The notes beneath the pieces are model-generated. The model saw only the letters and a list, made by a program, of their open reading frames with translations. It had not been told where the DNA came from and did not search any database. This document shows positions 3,544-13,077 of a DNA stretch of 13,465 bases, one piece after another. Source of the stretch: a virus. The position numbers and the translations under genes were made by a program. Each line of letters begins with the position of its first letter. Position 1 is the first letter of the stretch. The stretch is taken from the UHGV virus genome UHGV-2124687; one strand, 5' to 3'.

Positions 3544-3783
3544 ATGTACAAAATTGATGCCGTGAAATTTTTCGGCACAAACACTCAAGTGGCACATGTT
3601 GCTGGCGTCGACCGCTCTGCTGTAAGTCAATGGAAAGAACTTGTTCCCGAGCGCTGTGCTCAGCGTCTCTCTGATGCCTCAAATGGCGCACTCATCTACG
3701 ACAAAGACGTTTATGACCGTTACCGCCAGGCCAAACGCCTTGGTAAACAGAATACCTGCATAACCAAGAAGGAATCTGATTGA
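3544..3783 (+). CDS. ydaS: YdaS-like Cro-type HTH protein, 79 aa
   Basis: ATG at 3544 with GAGG 7 nt upstream; motif AHVAGVDRSAVSQWKELVPERCAQRLSDAS matches the YdaS/Cro-like pattern; divergent from the repressor; stop overlaps the next start (TGATG). Confidence 0.75.
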   Translation: MYKIDAVKFFGTNTQVAHVAGVDRSAVSQWKELVPERCAQRLSDASNGALIYDKDVYDRYRQAKRLGKQNTCITKKESD

Positions 3784-4259
3784 TGAAAATCAACGAGATT
3801 AAATTGCTGGCCATCGAGCTGGAAGAGTGGGCGATGAAGGATGGCAGGAAAGGGGGCTGGAAAAAGATAGTCCCGCTGATTACAGCGCATCACTACGGTG
3901 ATTTGCTGGACAGCCTGACAGATATCGTGGACCCGTCAGAGTATGTGCGCCGCCTGCATAACAACACGCAGATCATCCAGCGGGCATTTCGAAATGACAC
4001 ACCGAACTATCGTGGCCAGGCAGCTGCGCTGGCGCCAGCAATCAAAGCTGCGATGGATGCAGAGCTGGCTGGTCAGCATGACTTACATAACCTGGTGGCC
4101 ATTGCGAACCGCGAGTGCATCGAGGCGACCAGTGCAGTGCTGACTGGTAAGCCAATGCAGGTAATCCGCAAAGAAACGGCAGAGGCAATTCAGGCTCTGG
4201 CCGATCTCATCCCCGGCGTCAGCATTCAGTTCAACCATATTGGTCCACGCGCGGCGTAA
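3783..4259 (+). CDS. ydaT: YdaT-like protein, 158 aa
   Basis: Translationally coupled immediately downstream of the YdaS-like gene, as in Rac racR-ydaS-ydaT; the family call rests on position and general similarity from memory. Confidence 0.55.
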   Translation: MKINEIKLLAIELEEWAMKDGRKGGWKKIVPLITAHHYGDLLDSLTDIVDPSEYVRRLHNNTQIIQRAFRNDTPNYRGQAAALAPAIKAAMDAELAGQHDLHNLVAIANRECIEATSAVLTGKPMQVIRKETAEAIQALADLIPGVSIQFNHIGPRAA

Positions 4260-7541: not shown

Positions 7542-7560
7542 NNNNNNNNNNNNNNNNNNN
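7542..7560. other. Run of 19 N (gap or masked bases)
   Basis: Literal n characters in the sequence. Confidence 1.
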
Positions 7561-8268: not shown

Positions 8269-8461
8269 TTTAGTATGGTGCTGCCCGGAGCTTCCTGTTA
8301 ATCACTATGTACTCCCGTTTAGCCACGTCATTTTAGATTTGGTTTTGGTCCGCTATGAGCGAGGAGCAGAAGTTCGTAATTCCTTTAGACAATCCTCCAG
8401 GGAGGTTATGATAAAATATACAGCCATAAAGCCTATAGGGAGTGGACATGACATTGTTTGA
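8237..8461 (+). CDS. Hypothetical protein, 74 aa (weakly supported)
   Basis: ORF-track ORF overlapping its neighbours by 32 nt and 20 nt; weak RBS. May be a frameshifted remnant. Confidence 0.25.
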   Translation: MKQRLPLARTDLVWCCPELPVNHYVLPFSHVILDLVLVRYERGAEVRNSFRQSSREVMIKYTAIKPIGSGHDIV

Positions 8462-8822
8462 GGAATGTAAGGAACTGCTCAAGACAGATTTTAATGTTGT
8501 GGAAGGGGATGATTTGAGCGCGATAATGGATATTTTTCATCAATATCCATGGCATAGCGGTAATCTCAGATGGTCGGAAATGGACTTCAGCGATTATGAA
8601 CTTAGTCATGATATGTTTAACGGGGGCGGTTTAGGCAATGAAACTGTATTTGTCATAGCGGATGATGCGAATGTACCCGTGTTCAGAACCCATCTACAAC
8701 TCATTGTCGATAATATCTACGATGTCATCGCCATATCACCTAACCTATTTATTTTTAATGATAAAATAATGATTAAACCTTTATTCCCTCATAATTATAT
8801 ACGGTTTGGTCTGCGAAAGTGA
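8442..8822 (+). CDS. Hypothetical protein, 126 aa, strongly AT-rich
   Basis: GGGAG upstream of the ATG; AT-rich codon usage unlike the phage backbone. Immunity-protein-like is only a guess; no family recognised. Confidence 0.45.
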   Translation: MDMTLFEECKELLKTDFNVVEGDDLSAIMDIFHQYPWHSGNLRWSEMDFSDYELSHDMFNGGGLGNETVFVIADDANVPVFRTHLQLIVDNIYDVIAISPNLFIFNDKIMIKPLFPHNYIRFGLRK

Positions 8823-9091: not shown

Positions 9092-9587
9092 TCAAAGTGT
9101 CATCATCATTTCATGCCATGCCATTCCACCGTGGTCCGATTCTGACGGTTTGATGTACTGGTAACCAAAATGGGCGTACAGATCGACGTGGCGGTCTTTG
9201 CACATCAGGTGAATGGTTTTTTTGTTCATTGCTATCATGCGCGTCACAAATTCACGCATCAGTAATGATGAATATCCTTTGCCCTGGTAATCAGGGTGCA
9301 CCACGACAGACATAATCACTGCATTGGGTGCATCCGGATCGTGACCTACCAGTTCTTTGAACTCTTCGTCGGACATCACGACTTCCCACGCACAGCCCGC
9401 ATTAATGAAACCAATAACGTCACCGTTCAACTCCATGCATANNNNNNNNNNNNNNNNNNNNNNNNNNNNNNNNNNNNNNNNNNNNNNNNNNNNNNNNNNN
9501 NNNNNNNNNNNNNNNNNNTGTGATTTCAATATCATAGCAACGATCAACATCGGCATCAGTGGCCTGACGGAATACAGGGGTAGACAT
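9092..9587 (-). CDS. GNAT-family N-acetyltransferase, interrupted by the N run
   Basis: Start reconstructed by hand at 9587 (MSTPVFRQATDADVDRCYDIEIT...), upstream of the track ORF 9092..9556; downstream part has a GNAT-like core (HPDYQGKGYSSLLMREFV). Frame across the gap is undefined. Confidence 0.8.
9442..9518. other. Run of 77 N (gap or masked bases) inside the GNAT gene
   Basis: Literal n characters in the sequence. Confidence 1.
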
Positions 9588-9723
9588 AGCCTTGCCTCTT
9601 CAGATTCATTTGTTTGGAATTATACTATCTTTTTTTTATCCTGCTTTCGCTGCATTTTATTCAACACTAAAATGTAGAATATTCATTTATTGTGTTTTAA
9701 ATAATATCTGAGAAAGAAGAATC

Positions 9724-10695
9724 ATGATGTCAACGTTGCGCAAGATCGATCTGAATTTATTGCTTATATTCGATTCTCTTTATCGGCATGGAAGCGTGAC
9801 GGAGGCCGCCAACGAACTGGCACTAAGCCCATCCGCACTAAGTCATGCGCTCAATCGCTTACGTACATCACTGGACGATCCCTTATTCGTGCGCACTGGT
9901 GGAAGCATGGTGCCCACGTCAAAAGCTGAAAGCATTGCAGCAAGTATTTCTGCCGCTCTAGGAAGTCTCTCGTCCTGCCTGCATGAGCCAGAACACTTTG
10001 AGCCGGAAAAAAGCCGGGAGAGTTTTACCTTTGCTGCTACGGACTACACTGCCGCCGCTATCCTGCCAAGCTTGATCGCGAGGGTTAACAGCCTTGCGCC
10101 GGGCATTACCATTAAGCTTATCTACTCACGCGATTTTAACGCCGACGAAGATTTGCTTTCAGGCAAAGTTGATTTCGCCCTTGGCTTTGAAGAAGAGCAG
10201 AAAGCCCCACGGCGCGGCATAGAGTCGATTACTTGCTTTACTGATGATTACGTGGTTGCAGTGCGACGCGGTCATCCTAATATCCAGGATTCCCTTACCC
10301 AAGAGCGTTATCTGAGCGCCGGACACGTAGTGGTGCGTCCATGGTTGGAAAGACGGGGGGGGATCGACCGTTATCTGGAAAGTCAGCAGGTACGTCGCCG
10401 GGTCGTTGTTGAATTGCCAAGCCTGATGATTGCCCCAATTATCGTTTCGAATACTGATCTGGTTATCACGCTTCCCAAGCGGGGGATCTCATCAGTTTTT
10501 GATATGAAAAATCTGGTGGTGTTTGCTCCCCCGTTCCCGACACCACAGTACATTTTGAAAGCCTATTACAGCCCGGCACTCGGTAACTCGCCAGGGCATA
10601 TATGGATGAGGGGGCAAATTTTGCAGGTTTGTGATCCGCTAAATCCGGCGATGCCAGTAATTGCTGTCGATACAAATTCTGGTACAGAAAGGTAA
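9724..10695 (+). CDS. LysR-family transcriptional regulator, 323 aa
   Basis: N-terminal LysR-type HTH (KIDLNLLLIFDSLYRHGSVTEAANELALSPSALSHALNRLR) and typical length; divergent from the GNAT gene across a 136-bp AT-rich region. Confidence 0.9.
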   Translation: MMSTLRKIDLNLLLIFDSLYRHGSVTEAANELALSPSALSHALNRLRTSLDDPLFVRTGGSMVPTSKAESIAASISAALGSLSSCLHEPEHFEPEKSRESFTFAATDYTAAAILPSLIARVNSLAPGITIKLIYSRDFNADEDLLSGKVDFALGFEEEQKAPRRGIESITCFTDDYVVAVRRGHPNIQDSLTQERYLSAGHVVVRPWLERRGGIDRYLESQQVRRRVVVELPSLMIAPIIVSNTDLVITLPKRGISSVFDMKNLVVFAPPFPTPQYILKAYYSPALGNSPGHIWMRGQILQVCDPLNPAMPVIAVDTNSGTER

Positions 10696-10911: not shown

Positions 10912-11029
10912 CACACAGTTGCTCACTGATGATGCAATAGTGAGGGCGAATCTCTCGGATTGTGCCAGCAGAAAGAAACTGCCGCATAATAAAACACTGC
11001 TAATTCAACCCGCTACGGCGGGTTTTTTT
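10912..11029 (+). ncRNA. Copy B of the ~100-nt element, ending in a perfect intrinsic terminator (candidate sRNA)
   Basis: Homologous to 7608-7722; terminator AACCCGC-UACG-GCGGGUU then seven U at 11007-11029. Lies between the LysR stop and the dinI promoter with no ORF. Confidence 0.3.
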
Positions 11030-11096
11030 GTTTTACTCCTGACAGGAAATTAACAATTTGTGCTCTTAAAACGTTGATCATTTCCGTGCATGAGTA

Positions 11097-11116
11097 TACT
11101 GTATAAAAAAACAGTA
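11097..11116. promoter_or_regulatory. LexA box (SOS operator) over the dinI promoter
   Basis: TACTGTATAAAAAAACAGTA matches the CTGT-N8-ACAG consensus; overlaps a TATACT -10-like hexamer (11095-11100) with TTGATC at 11074-11079. Confidence 0.75.
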
Positions 11117-11134
11117 TATGCAATGGAGGCCATT

Positions 11135-11371
11135 ATGAAAGTTGAATTAACCATTGATCGCATGAAAGAACTTCCTAAAGGCGCGGTTCCAGCACTGGAG
11201 AAAGAATTACTTAACCGCCTGAATGATCACTATGACAATTGCAGGCTTACAATCCGGCGCGCAGGGTCGAATGGGTTAAGTGTTTTTGGCGGTGACAAGG
11301 ACGATAAAAAGAAAATTGAATCAATCCTCCAGGATACCTGGGAAAGTGCAGACGAGTGGTTTGTTAATTAA
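11135..11371 (+). CDS. dinI: DinI-family DNA-damage-inducible protein, 78 aa
   Basis: GGAGG 5 nt upstream of the ATG; MKVELTIDRMKELPKGAVPALEKEL...LSVFGGDKDDKKKIESILQDTWESADEWFVN closely matches recalled E. coli DinI. Confidence 0.9.
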   Translation: MKVELTIDRMKELPKGAVPALEKELLNRLNDHYDNCRLTIRRAGSNGLSVFGGDKDDKKKIESILQDTWESADEWFVN

Positions 11372-11383
11372 CACCCCTTAGCT

Positions 11384-11406
11384 GGTAGCTCCTGCTGCCA
11401 TTTTTT
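11384..11406 (+). terminator. Candidate intrinsic terminator after dinI
   Basis: GGUAGC-UCCU-GCUGCC (one G-U pair) then AUUUUUU, 13 nt after the dinI stop. Confidence 0.5.
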
Positions 11407-11492
11407 AAATCGAGTTTCCGCATCGCCTCGCGCAATTATTGCCAGGTAATTCAGGTCGATTCAGGTGTGGGAATCTTTGCAAGGGGCATCTC

Positions 11493-11675
11493 ATGCAAAT
11501 TCCGGATGATTTAATCCCAGGGTTGCCGGAGCACACTGGCCCGGTTCTGATTTATTTCGTGAAGGGGAGCGTGGTGAGGGGATTCGCTTTACGTAAAGAT
11601 GAATTTGTTACGTCTTTGCGGGCATTGGAAGAGGCCAGAAAGAAAGCTGGTCTTCCTGTTTATGATGCAGGATAA
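11493..11675 (+). CDS. Hypothetical nin-region protein, 60 aa
   Basis: Internal ATG of ORF 11439..11675 with AAGGGG upstream; no family recognised. Confidence 0.45.
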   Translation: MQIPDDLIPGLPEHTGPVLIYFVKGSVVRGFALRKDEFVTSLRALEEARKKAGLPVYDAG

Positions 11676-11820: not shown

Positions 11821-12129
11821 ATGAGCAGATCAAAGACCAAAGCCGAACAACTTCATCTTTCCCGCGTAGTCGTGCTGGGCTGTATTGTCTGCAAAAACCT
11901 GAATCTGGGTGAAACCCCAGCAGAGATACATCACATCCGAACTGGTCAGGGAGCTGGCCAGCGCGCTGACAATTTCAAAGTTATTCCTCTTTGCCCAATC
12001 CATCATCGCCAGGGCGGACACGGCGTAGCCATTCACGCTGGCCGCCAGTCCTGGGAAAACAATTACGGTACTGAAACAGAGCTGCTGGTGCAGGTTCTCT
12101 ACGAACTGGGGGAATCGACTTATGCCTGA
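11821..12129 (+). CDS. YbcO/Ref-like putative metal-binding nuclease, 102 aa
   Basis: Cys/His pattern (GCIVC...HHIRTG...CPIHH) and position directly upstream of a rusA-like gene, as in DLP12 ybcO-rusA. Family from memory. Confidence 0.55.
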   Translation: MSRSKTKAEQLHLSRVVVLGCIVCKNLNLGETPAEIHHIRTGQGAGQRADNFKVIPLCPIHHRQGGHGVAIHAGRQSWENNYGTETELLVQVLYELGESTYA

Positions 12130-12481
12130 ATATAAAATCTCTCCCGTTGGTAAGCCCAGAATGACCCGCGCTGATAAATGGAAAAAGCGCCCCGAGGTTC
12201 TGCGTTACCGGGCTTTCTGTGATGAAGTGCGTCTGCAGGGTATTGAGCTGCCGGAAAGTGGCTCGCATGTCACCTTCATCCTTCCGATGCCAGCGAGCTG
12301 GAGCAAAAAGAAACGGGCTGAGTTCAACGGTAAACCGCACCAGGCTAAACCTGATTTCGACAACATGATGAAAGCCCTGATGGACGCTATTTACGAAAAT
12401 GATGCTCATATATGGGATGTACGGGTATCAAAATTATGGGGTGAAACAGGGAGAATTATTATTGAGGAGCTAAAAGCATGA
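12122..12481 (+). CDS. rusA: RusA-family Holliday junction resolvase, 119 aa
   Basis: Acidic motif KPDFDNMMKALMDAIYENDAHIWDVRV parallels the RusA catalytic Asp cluster; start overlaps the upstream gene; stop overlaps the next start (ATGA). Confidence 0.7.
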   Translation: MPEYKISPVGKPRMTRADKWKKRPEVLRYRAFCDEVRLQGIELPESGSHVTFILPMPASWSKKKRAEFNGKPHQAKPDFDNMMKALMDAIYENDAHIWDVRVSKLWGETGRIIIEELKA

Positions 12482-13077
12482 CGCCACGCCAACGAAGACT
12501 ACAGCAGTCAGCACTTGAAAAAGCAGCAGTTGCGCCGCGTAAAAGCTGGCTGGGTAAATGCATTCTTCTGACGGGGATTCAGTCCGGATGGATTAAATCC
12601 CTGCTCACTACATGGGGCGAGGGTGTGGGAGGTAAAACAGCACCTCGTATGCCGCGGGGCCATGCGTGCTGGAATGTGCTTAAGGGACGGAACTGGTCAG
12701 ATAAGGCGCTTGAGCGTTTCACTGCTGCGTTGAATCAGGCGAGAGAAGAGGGATTCCGTGGACAGCAGGCAATGAACAGGGCACATAGCATTCTCTGGCC
12801 CCAGTCCCCCGCCAGTGTGATTGACGAGGCCCTGCATAATGACGATGTCGATTTTGTTGAGCAATGCGTACTGCAGGCTCTGGATATTAACGATCCGGTT
12901 TATGTTGTTGGTCTTCAGTATTACACCACTCGAAAAAAAATCTCAGACATAACCCGGGAACTGCAGACGATTGCACCATGGTTAACTGACGGGGAGGCGA
13001 GAAAGCGCGTGCGCTGGTGCCTGGAAATATTCAGAGCAAAGGTCTTTTTGGAGGCACGCAAACAACTATCTGAATAG
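12478..13077 (+). CDS. Putative late-gene antiterminator (Q-like), 199 aa
   Basis: Called mainly on position: coupled downstream of rusA and directly upstream of a promoter plus terminator unit. Sequence family not confirmed. Confidence 0.55.
   Translation: MTPRQRRLQQSALEKAAVAPRKSWLGKCILLTGIQSGWIKSLLTTWGEGVGGKTAPRMPRGHACWNVLKGRNWSDKALERFTAALNQAREEGFRGQQAMNRAHSILWPQSPASVIDEALHNDDVDFVEQCVLQALDINDPVYVVGLQYYTTRKKISDITRELQTIAPWLTDGEARKRVRWCLEIFRAKVFLEARKQLSE

Follow-up and report, generated by a model that had tools for sequence, protein, structure and literature searches.

Introduction

Prophage-borne dinI genes under LexA control are already known from the Gifsy prophages, and a LexA-controlled DinI-like domain is known from the Tum protein of coliphage 186. 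The short repressors of the Gifsy prophages are not cleaved, and induction of these prophages needs a LexA-controlled locus located 3' of the replication genes (Lemire et al. 2011, PMC3121763). In this locus a terminator-like palindrome precedes a LexA box, which is followed by a dinI homologue, the gene of a small antirepressor and irsA (PMC3121763). Neither the level nor the rate of Gifsy induction changed significantly upon non-polar deletion of dinI, and in Gifsy-2 a pBAD promoter placed 5' of dinI drives induction (PMC3121763). Transcription there must therefore read through into the antirepressor gene, despite the hairpin and the run of five T which follow dinI. As for the DinI protein, its C-terminal acidic helix contacts RecA in a published model (work cited in PMC3121763).

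Among antirepressors of DicA, Rem is the one with demonstrated activity, which was shown for the protein of the E. coli K-12 prophage Qin, a long-form member of its family (PMC10448788). In E. coli this protein derepresses the DicA-controlled dicB promoter 165-fold (Ragunathan et al. 2023, PMC10448788). According to the same authors, the inducing condition for Rem is not known (PMC10448788), and their link between Rem and GfoA was made solely via an intermediate sequence (PMC10448788). In a literature search, Rem, DicA and LexA were found together only in this paper (PMC10448788), where the signal is left open.

Prophages with uncleavable repressors of the DicA, RacR or Gifsy type are very common in Enterobacteriaceae. 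Damage sensing by such prophages decides the timing of host killing and of gene spread. Here a LexA-dinI locus from the virus genome UHGV-2124687 is compared with these systems. The whole stretch of DNA that was analysed, 13,465 nucleotides, is referred to as the window.

Results

The prophage segment and its repressor

By its gene content the window is recognisable as the immunity-to-Q segment of a lambdoid prophage, with dinI in the nin region, and the initial annotation was right in calling this dinI a prophage gene. The prophage extends beyond the window, and a further induction route could exist there. The gene order is repressor, Cro-like gene, YdaT/CII-like gene, O- and P-like replication genes, a DUF1627 gene and accessory genes, followed by a terminator, the LexA box, dinI, a hairpin, a 60-aa ORF, a DUF968 gene, rusA and a gene for a Q-like antiterminator (Table 1). 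The same DinI protein, in essentially the same gene arrangement, is found in several NCBI assemblies and in metagenome scaffolds. All of these loci continue into lysis genes and most of them also into terminase or portal genes. The closest named relatives of the 60-aa ORF are from Citrobacter, and the host of the prophage is probably Citrobacter as well.

Table 1. Position, strand and supporting evidence of the regulatory elements and genes discussed in the text.
Feature	Position	Strand	Evidence
Prophage repressor, DicA subfamily, 135 aa	3054-3461	-	NCBIfam, Pfam
Cro/DicC-like gene, divergent from the repressor	3544-3783	+	Pfam P22_Cro; gene calls in loci with the same DinI
YdaT/CII-like gene	3780-4259	+	Pfam YdaT_toxin; gene calls in loci with the same DinI
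Intrinsic terminator, AACCCGCTACGGCGGGTT followed by a T-run	11007-11031	+	Terminator scan; fold, -12.8 kcal/mol
Predicted sigma-70 promoter	11074-11102	+	Read from the sequence; conserved layout
LexA operator (SOS box), TACTGTATAAAAAAACAGTA	11097-11116	+	Exact match, pattern count, matrix score
dinI homologue, 78 aa (Shine-Dalgarno GGAGG, 11125-11129)	11135-11371	+	Pfam DinI, PHROG 189, PDB 1GHH
CCCCTT, three bases past the dinI stop codon	11374-11379	+	Predicted pairing with the rem Shine-Dalgarno AAGGGG, 11481-11486
Terminator-like hairpin, TGGTAGC-TCCT-GCTGCCA + TTTTTT	11383-11406 (hairpin 11383-11400)	+	Terminator scan; fold
rem homologue, short form, 60 aa, predicted antirepressor	11493-11675	+	Identity to Rac Rem, PF27490 label, PHROGs
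DUF968/RecA-dependent-nuclease-like gene	11821-12129	+	
rusA	12122-12481	+	
Q-like antiterminator	12478-13077	+	

The repressor matched the NCBIfam model 'transcriptional repressor DicA' with 216 bits (cut-off 101) over positions 1-135 of 135. Its Pfam matches are HTH_3 and Phage_CI_repr only, and searches of Pfam and NCBIfam found no S24 peptidase or autocleavage domain in it, which predicts that the protein is not cleavable by RecA. The closest phage repressor is that of phage HannyBb (67% identity), which also has a rem homologue, and identity to the Gifsy-2 repressor GftR is 27% (E 5e-11). In each of six divergent prophages with rem, from Salmonella, Enterobacter and Klebsiella, an HTH repressor of 129-135 aa is encoded next to Cro and YdaT genes.

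Several other features of the segment were noted. An orphan CdiI-type contact-dependent-inhibition (CDI) immunity gene is present in the early region (8442-8822; Pfam CdiI_ImmP, 121 bits) and might protect lysogens from CDI toxins. Just 5' of the dinI terminator, positions 9092-10695 hold a GNAT acetyltransferase gene (- strand) and a LysR-family regulator gene (+ strand). This region is a variable accessory-gene slot: the pair is missing from close prophages with the same DinI (L005, L009), and IS transposase genes are found there in two other loci (L007 and L010). A LysR regulator is unusual cargo for a prophage. The window contains two runs of N (7542-7560 and 9442-9518), the second of which falls inside the GNAT ORF, and the length of this ORF is therefore unreliable (154 aa vs 163 aa in related loci). 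The product of the DUF968 gene matches both DUF968 and RecA_dep_nuc, the family of P1 Ref-like RecA-dependent nucleases; DinI, which binds RecA filaments, is thus encoded within a short distance of a possible RecA-dependent nuclease. Other rem loci have irsA/DUF1367 or NinG at the position after rem. Scanned in full against Rfam at gathering thresholds, the window gave no match.

The LexA box, the promoter and dinI

The 20-bp site in front of dinI, TACTGTATAAAAAAACAGTA, occurs once in the window. A search for the pattern CTGT-N8-ACAG likewise returned this single site in 13.5 kb, vs 0.17 expected by chance. A LexA scoring matrix was prepared from 14 E. coli SOS boxes (Table 4 of PMC3009722). 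With this matrix the box scored 27.7 bits (training sites 19.2-29.0), while the runner-up in the window reached 7.8 bits and the top score over 60 shuffles was 18.1 bits. The site is one base away from the umuD/sbmC box and lies nearer to the consensus than the box of chromosomal dinI, ACCTGTATAAATAACCAGTA. The fit to the LexA consensus that had been read from the letters in the initial annotation therefore holds, and the site is the sole strong one in the window. LexA would be expected to bind here.

The predicted promoter has the -35 element TTGATC (11074-11079) and two candidates for the -10 element: TATACT (11095-11100, 15-nt spacer) and TACTGT (11097-11102, 17-nt spacer). The start coordinate given in the initial annotation, 11074, coincides with the first base of the -35 element. 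Both candidates overlap the LexA box, and the earlier claim that the box overlaps the -10 is true for either of them. The promoter itself is proposed from its conserved layout. An arrangement of TTGnnn-15 nt-T[A/G]TACT-box, 36-39 nt 5' of the ATG, is shared by 41 distinct related loci and Gifsy-2. The dinI promoter was not among the calls of a generic promoter scanner run over the window. As in genes of the SOS regulon, a CTGT-N8-ACAG operator overlaps the promoter of dinI. The terminator upstream of the promoter is almost identical to the element found 5' of the Gifsy-2 and mEp237 LexA boxes and is predicted to insulate the SOS promoter against upstream transcription.

The dinI start codon is the ATG at 11135, five bases past GGAGG, and the stop codon is at 11369-11371. 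A mechanically called ORF of 93 aa beginning at 11090 was rejected as dinI, since its start lies within the promoter and box and the homologues begin with MKVEL. The protein matched Pfam DinI (PF06183) with 89.5 bits (cut-off 24.2) over model positions 1-63 of 63. It also matched PHROG 189, and it could be aligned over its full length with the solved structure of E. coli DinI, 1GHH (E 8e-18), which bears out its earlier description as a clear dinI homologue. The C-terminal ILQ-TWESAD-WF helix is kept, with ILQDTWESADEWFV of the window protein aligned to ILQETWESADDWFV of 1GHH. Against the NCBIfam equivalog PRK10597, which represents chromosomal DinI, the score was 90.2 bits and thus below the cut-off of 111; the window gene is therefore a phage-borne paralogue. 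In many phages dinI is found without rem, at other positions in the genome.

The gene behind dinI

The next ORF begins 121 nt after the dinI stop codon. Its 60-aa product is 49% identical to Rem of the Rac phage, annotated as 'prophage antirepressor' (tblastn, E 8e-8), and 52-55% identical to the long-form Rem proteins of E. coli chromosomes, where the resemblance to the long form (49-55% identity) covers the C-terminal 40-50 residues. The exact 60-aa protein and its homologues bear the precomputed Pfam label PF27490:Rem, and the ORF matches PHROGs 31309 and 340. No family was returned by NCBIfam or by a copy of Pfam that lacks the PF27490 model. The TTG at 11439 was rejected as the start of rem, as the homologues are 59-62 aa long and have a conserved MQIPDDL N-terminus. 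By analogy with Rem of Qin, the 60-aa protein is predicted to be an antirepressor of the DicA-type repressor of the window.

Homology with the Gifsy antirepressors was considered and rejected. BLASTP searches of the 60-aa protein against GftA and mEp237_049 were empty, and hhalign, which compared a Rem alignment with a GftA alignment, gave a probability of 2%, with both alignments being shallow enough for distant homology to escape. The similarity between mEp237_049 and GftA was not significant either. Because no sequence or profile similarity was found, any functional likeness between Rem and GftA is drawn from the experiments with long-form E. coli Rem. Regarding the nomenclature of the Gifsy genes, a 2026 preprint (PMC13320796) names STM1019 as the Gifsy-2 antirepressor. 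On comparison with NC_010393 (L002) this naming may be loose, and the construct is described in the preprint as the 'STM1019 region'.

Distribution of the LexA box among rem loci

Loci with rem were collected from IMG/VR (80), GTDB genomes (10) and other assemblies, and the regions upstream of rem were scored after removal of duplicates. In these counts, which come from phylogenetically related loci and do not represent independent events, a strict LexA box was present in all 41 distinct loci where short-form rem has dinI on its 5' side, in 11 of the 22 distinct short-form loci without dinI and in none of the 17 distinct loci with long-form (Qin/Rac-type) rem. The box lies 36-39 nt before the ATG of dinI (24 nt in L092) in the first group and 40-153 nt before rem, within unrelated flanks, in the second. 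The adjacency of dinI and rem has a fixed spacing in the 41 loci, and the boxes, promoters and flanks vary in sequence between lineages. The LexA box tracks rem, while dinI often leads the unit but can be dispensed with.

In some prophages with rem, no LexA box lies within 10 kb, and LexA control is therefore common but not universal for the Rem family. The short and long forms of rem appear to be differently regulated. No LexA box was found within 200 nt of the long-form rem loci (L001, L076-L100). In the Rac phage and HannyBb records, long-form rem is preceded by a hok/mok toxin module and a terminator, and by a conserved AGCGCGCAGGGAGAAGAGGGATGGACCC leader. One long-form locus (L098) is nearly identical to the Escherichia locus L097, yet its contig bears the label of a Veillonella parvula metagenome-assembled genome, probably owing to a binning error. 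Four IMG/VR loci (L059, L061, L062 and L063) carry two near-consensus LexA boxes 5' of dinI-rem, about 480 nt apart (at about 2150 and 2634). The double boxes suggest a second SOS-controlled gene just upstream.

The comparison with other phages also uncovered a sharp mosaic joint. Positions 10963-11362, which include almost the whole of dinI together with its box, its promoter and the upstream terminator, are about 91% identical in phage mEp237 (L003) and in E. coli prophages (52 E. coli genomes). Divergence begins at the 3' end of dinI, and past this joint mEp237 contains Gifsy-2-like sequence with a different small ORF and irsA. The terminator, -35, -10, box and dinI are in common in an alignment with Gifsy-2 and mEp237. 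Behind the same LexA-dinI head, the antirepressor position has therefore received different genes, which would be expected of a position that determines repressor specificity. As a recombination linker, the conserved dinI sequence may allow antirepressor alleles to be swapped behind a common SOS promoter.

The interval between dinI and rem

The hairpin between dinI and rem folds with -11.2 kcal/mol and is followed by six T, compared to -12.8 kcal/mol for the upstream terminator and -7.8 kcal/mol with five T for the Gifsy-2 counterpart. It looks like a competent intrinsic terminator and is a probable attenuator, so that little transcription from the LexA promoter may reach rem. The other lineages inspected have a GC-rich hairpin at the same position, but its sequence differs and its T-tail varies between canonical and degenerate; the automatic measure of the T-tails is confounded by alternative folds and was used qualitatively, together with reading of the sequences. 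In an alignment of 11 sequences, compensatory changes were observed in two of the six hairpin pairs. A further terminator-like site (11631-11654) was discarded, as its T tract is poor and it falls inside the coding sequence of rem.

A promoter scan of the interval found no promoter-like site. The adjacency of dinI and rem in 41 of 41 loci and the lack of an internal promoter speak for co-transcription, whereas the six-T hairpin that separates the genes speaks against it. Transcripts are presumed to read through from dinI into rem.

Immediately after dinI, CCCCTT could pair with the Shine-Dalgarno sequence of rem. The CCCCTT/AAGGGG pairing appears in both the minimum-free-energy and the consensus folds. 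It is paired in 94.5% of cells and kept in 10 of the 11 sequences, which belong to two clades, with no double-sided pair change. From these predicted folds it may tentatively be proposed that the pairing allows translational coupling of rem to dinI.

Discussion

A model of SOS-dependent induction through Rem

The reading which is favoured here, at a probability of roughly 0.65, is that the module is the SOS-sensing induction unit of a lambdoid prophage with an uncleavable DicA-type repressor, and that its output runs via Rem. In a lysogen, host LexA on the box would block a promoter that is isolated by the upstream terminator. DNA damage would give active RecA, LexA would cleave itself, the promoter would fire and DinI would be made. 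Those transcripts which read through the hairpin would also encode the 60-aa Rem. Rem would then bind the DicA-type repressor and remove it from its operators, resulting in lytic expression without proteolysis; that it acts on the repressor of the window itself is presumed. As the repressor would not be destroyed, induction is proposed to be reversible. The hairpin would hold Rem well below DinI and would in this way set an induction threshold, and a pairing that masks the ribosome-binding site of rem would add to this restraint. DinI, as a binder of RecA filaments, would ride as the first gene, with a contribution to induction that is probably small or conditional.

The initial annotation had assigned the induction role to dinI, as an SOS-induced modulator of RecA which could feed back on prophage induction. 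The first half of this proposal stands, in that a prophage-borne dinI lies behind a near-consensus LexA box. The feedback does not fare as well. Since the repressor has no peptidase domain and would not be cleaved with the help of RecA, DinI could affect induction only indirectly, via LexA cleavage. The dinI deletions in Gifsy were without significant effect, the rem gene next to dinI had been overlooked, and the LexA box follows rem with or without dinI. The link to induction therefore most likely passes through Rem and not through DinI and RecA.

Alternative explanations

The alternative that survives best is that dinI is a self-contained, LexA-regulated moron which modulates RecA filaments and thereby SOS and induction, while rem is expressed separately, e.g. 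by antiterminated early-right read-through. In its favour, the gene has terminator-like elements on both sides, the downstream one with six T and -11.2 kcal/mol, its product has a C-terminal helix conserved relative to E. coli DinI (1GHH), and many phage dinI genes lie elsewhere in the genome without rem. The fixed-spacing adjacency of dinI and rem in 41 distinct loci is difficult to reconcile with it, however, as are the 11 dinI-less loci in which the LexA box directly precedes rem. Moreover, the repressor offers no RecA substrate, Gifsy induction was unaffected by deletions of dinI, and the promoter scan found no promoter-like site between dinI and rem. A stand-alone dinI is therefore possible but doubtful.

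A bolder proposal, which we regard as unlikely in its full form, is that the dinI frame and its 3' flank constitute a cis-regulatory gate, made of a conserved leaky terminator and an anti-Shine-Dalgarno sequence, with LexA being the natural signal for Rem. If this were true, the leaky terminator would pass only strong or sustained SOS transcription on to rem, and the anti-Shine-Dalgarno sequence would tie translation of rem to ribosomes finishing dinI, resulting in a two-stage SOS timer. Such a gate would also explain why dinI is faithfully retained before antirepressor genes despite its deletion having no phenotype.

It is very improbable that the module works mainly in trans, with SOS-induced Rem (and perhaps DinI) cross-inducing other DicA/RacR-type prophages of the same cell. 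Gifsy antirepressors do act on the repressors of other prophages, and DicA-type repressors are widespread in enterobacterial prophages, but a repressor of the cognate type is encoded in the same element, and any action in trans would supplement the action in cis and not replace it. The window itself carries no sign of further prophages in the cell. Finally, a chance palindrome or a non-functional relic is excluded for practical purposes by the score of 27.7 bits against a shuffle maximum of 18.1 and by the fixed distance to the start codon across lineages with differing boxes and flanks.

Significance

Taking induction through Rem as the working model, what sets this locus apart is the Rem-family protein in the antirepressor position, its partnership with a DicA-subfamily repressor and the DUF968 gene in place of irsA. 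The arrangement of the sequence suggests that LexA and the SOS response may be the signal for Rem-type antirepressors. Short-form rem is usually found behind a LexA box, most often with a dinI leader, which makes the model testable in prophages of Citrobacter, Klebsiella and Enterobacter. In prophages, what matters about a dinI promoter is probably the expression of the next gene, and a tempting misreading of such loci is thereby corrected.

Comparison with known systems

The system which is most similar in layout is the LexA-controlled dinI-gfoA/gftA/gfhA-irsA operon of Gifsy-1, -2 and -3 in Salmonella (Lemire, Figueroa-Bossi and Bossi 2011, PMC3121763). Both have the palindrome, a LexA box overlapping the promoter, dinI, a hairpin and a small ORF in the antirepressor position, and in both the locus belongs to the nin region, with the replication genes on one side and Q on the other. 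They share the promoter layout TTGnnn-15 nt-TATACT and a short uncleavable HTH repressor, that of the window being 27% identical to GftR. The features of a Gifsy-type system are thus present as far as the repressor and the order terminator-box-dinI 3' of the replication genes are concerned. The position of GfoA/GftA is occupied as well, but by a protein of the Rem family with no detectable similarity to GftA. The third gene is DUF968/RecA_dep_nuc-like and not irsA (DUF1367), the position of which it takes when compared with Gifsy-2 and mEp237. Compared with Gifsy-2, the window has a stronger hairpin past dinI, with a longer run of T, and the host of the window prophage is Citrobacter-like, unlike the Salmonella hosts of Gifsy.

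With the DicA/Rem pair of the E. coli K-12 prophage Qin (PMC10448788), the locus shares a full-length DicA-subfamily repressor, a small protein of the Rem family and the location of rem upstream of the Q region. However, Rem of the Qin/Rac type is the long form of about 83-86 aa, without LexA box or dinI, whereas the window encodes the 60-aa short form behind a dinI with predicted LexA control.

The combination of a LexA-controlled antirepressor with DinI-like sequence, as proposed for the window, is also found in Tum of coliphage 186 and in the split tum/dinI of Fels-2 and PSP3. In 186 Tum the antirepressor and DinI-like parts are fused into one protein of 146 aa, with the antirepressor part first, and the phage is P2-like. 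In the window the two are separate genes in the reverse order, and the phage is lambdoid.

The chromosomal dinI of E. coli has in common with the window gene its membership in the DinI protein family and regulation by LexA, which is predicted for the latter. The prophage gene differs in having a box closer to the consensus, in encoding a protein that scores below the chromosomal equivalog cut-off and in being situated inside a prophage regulatory module.
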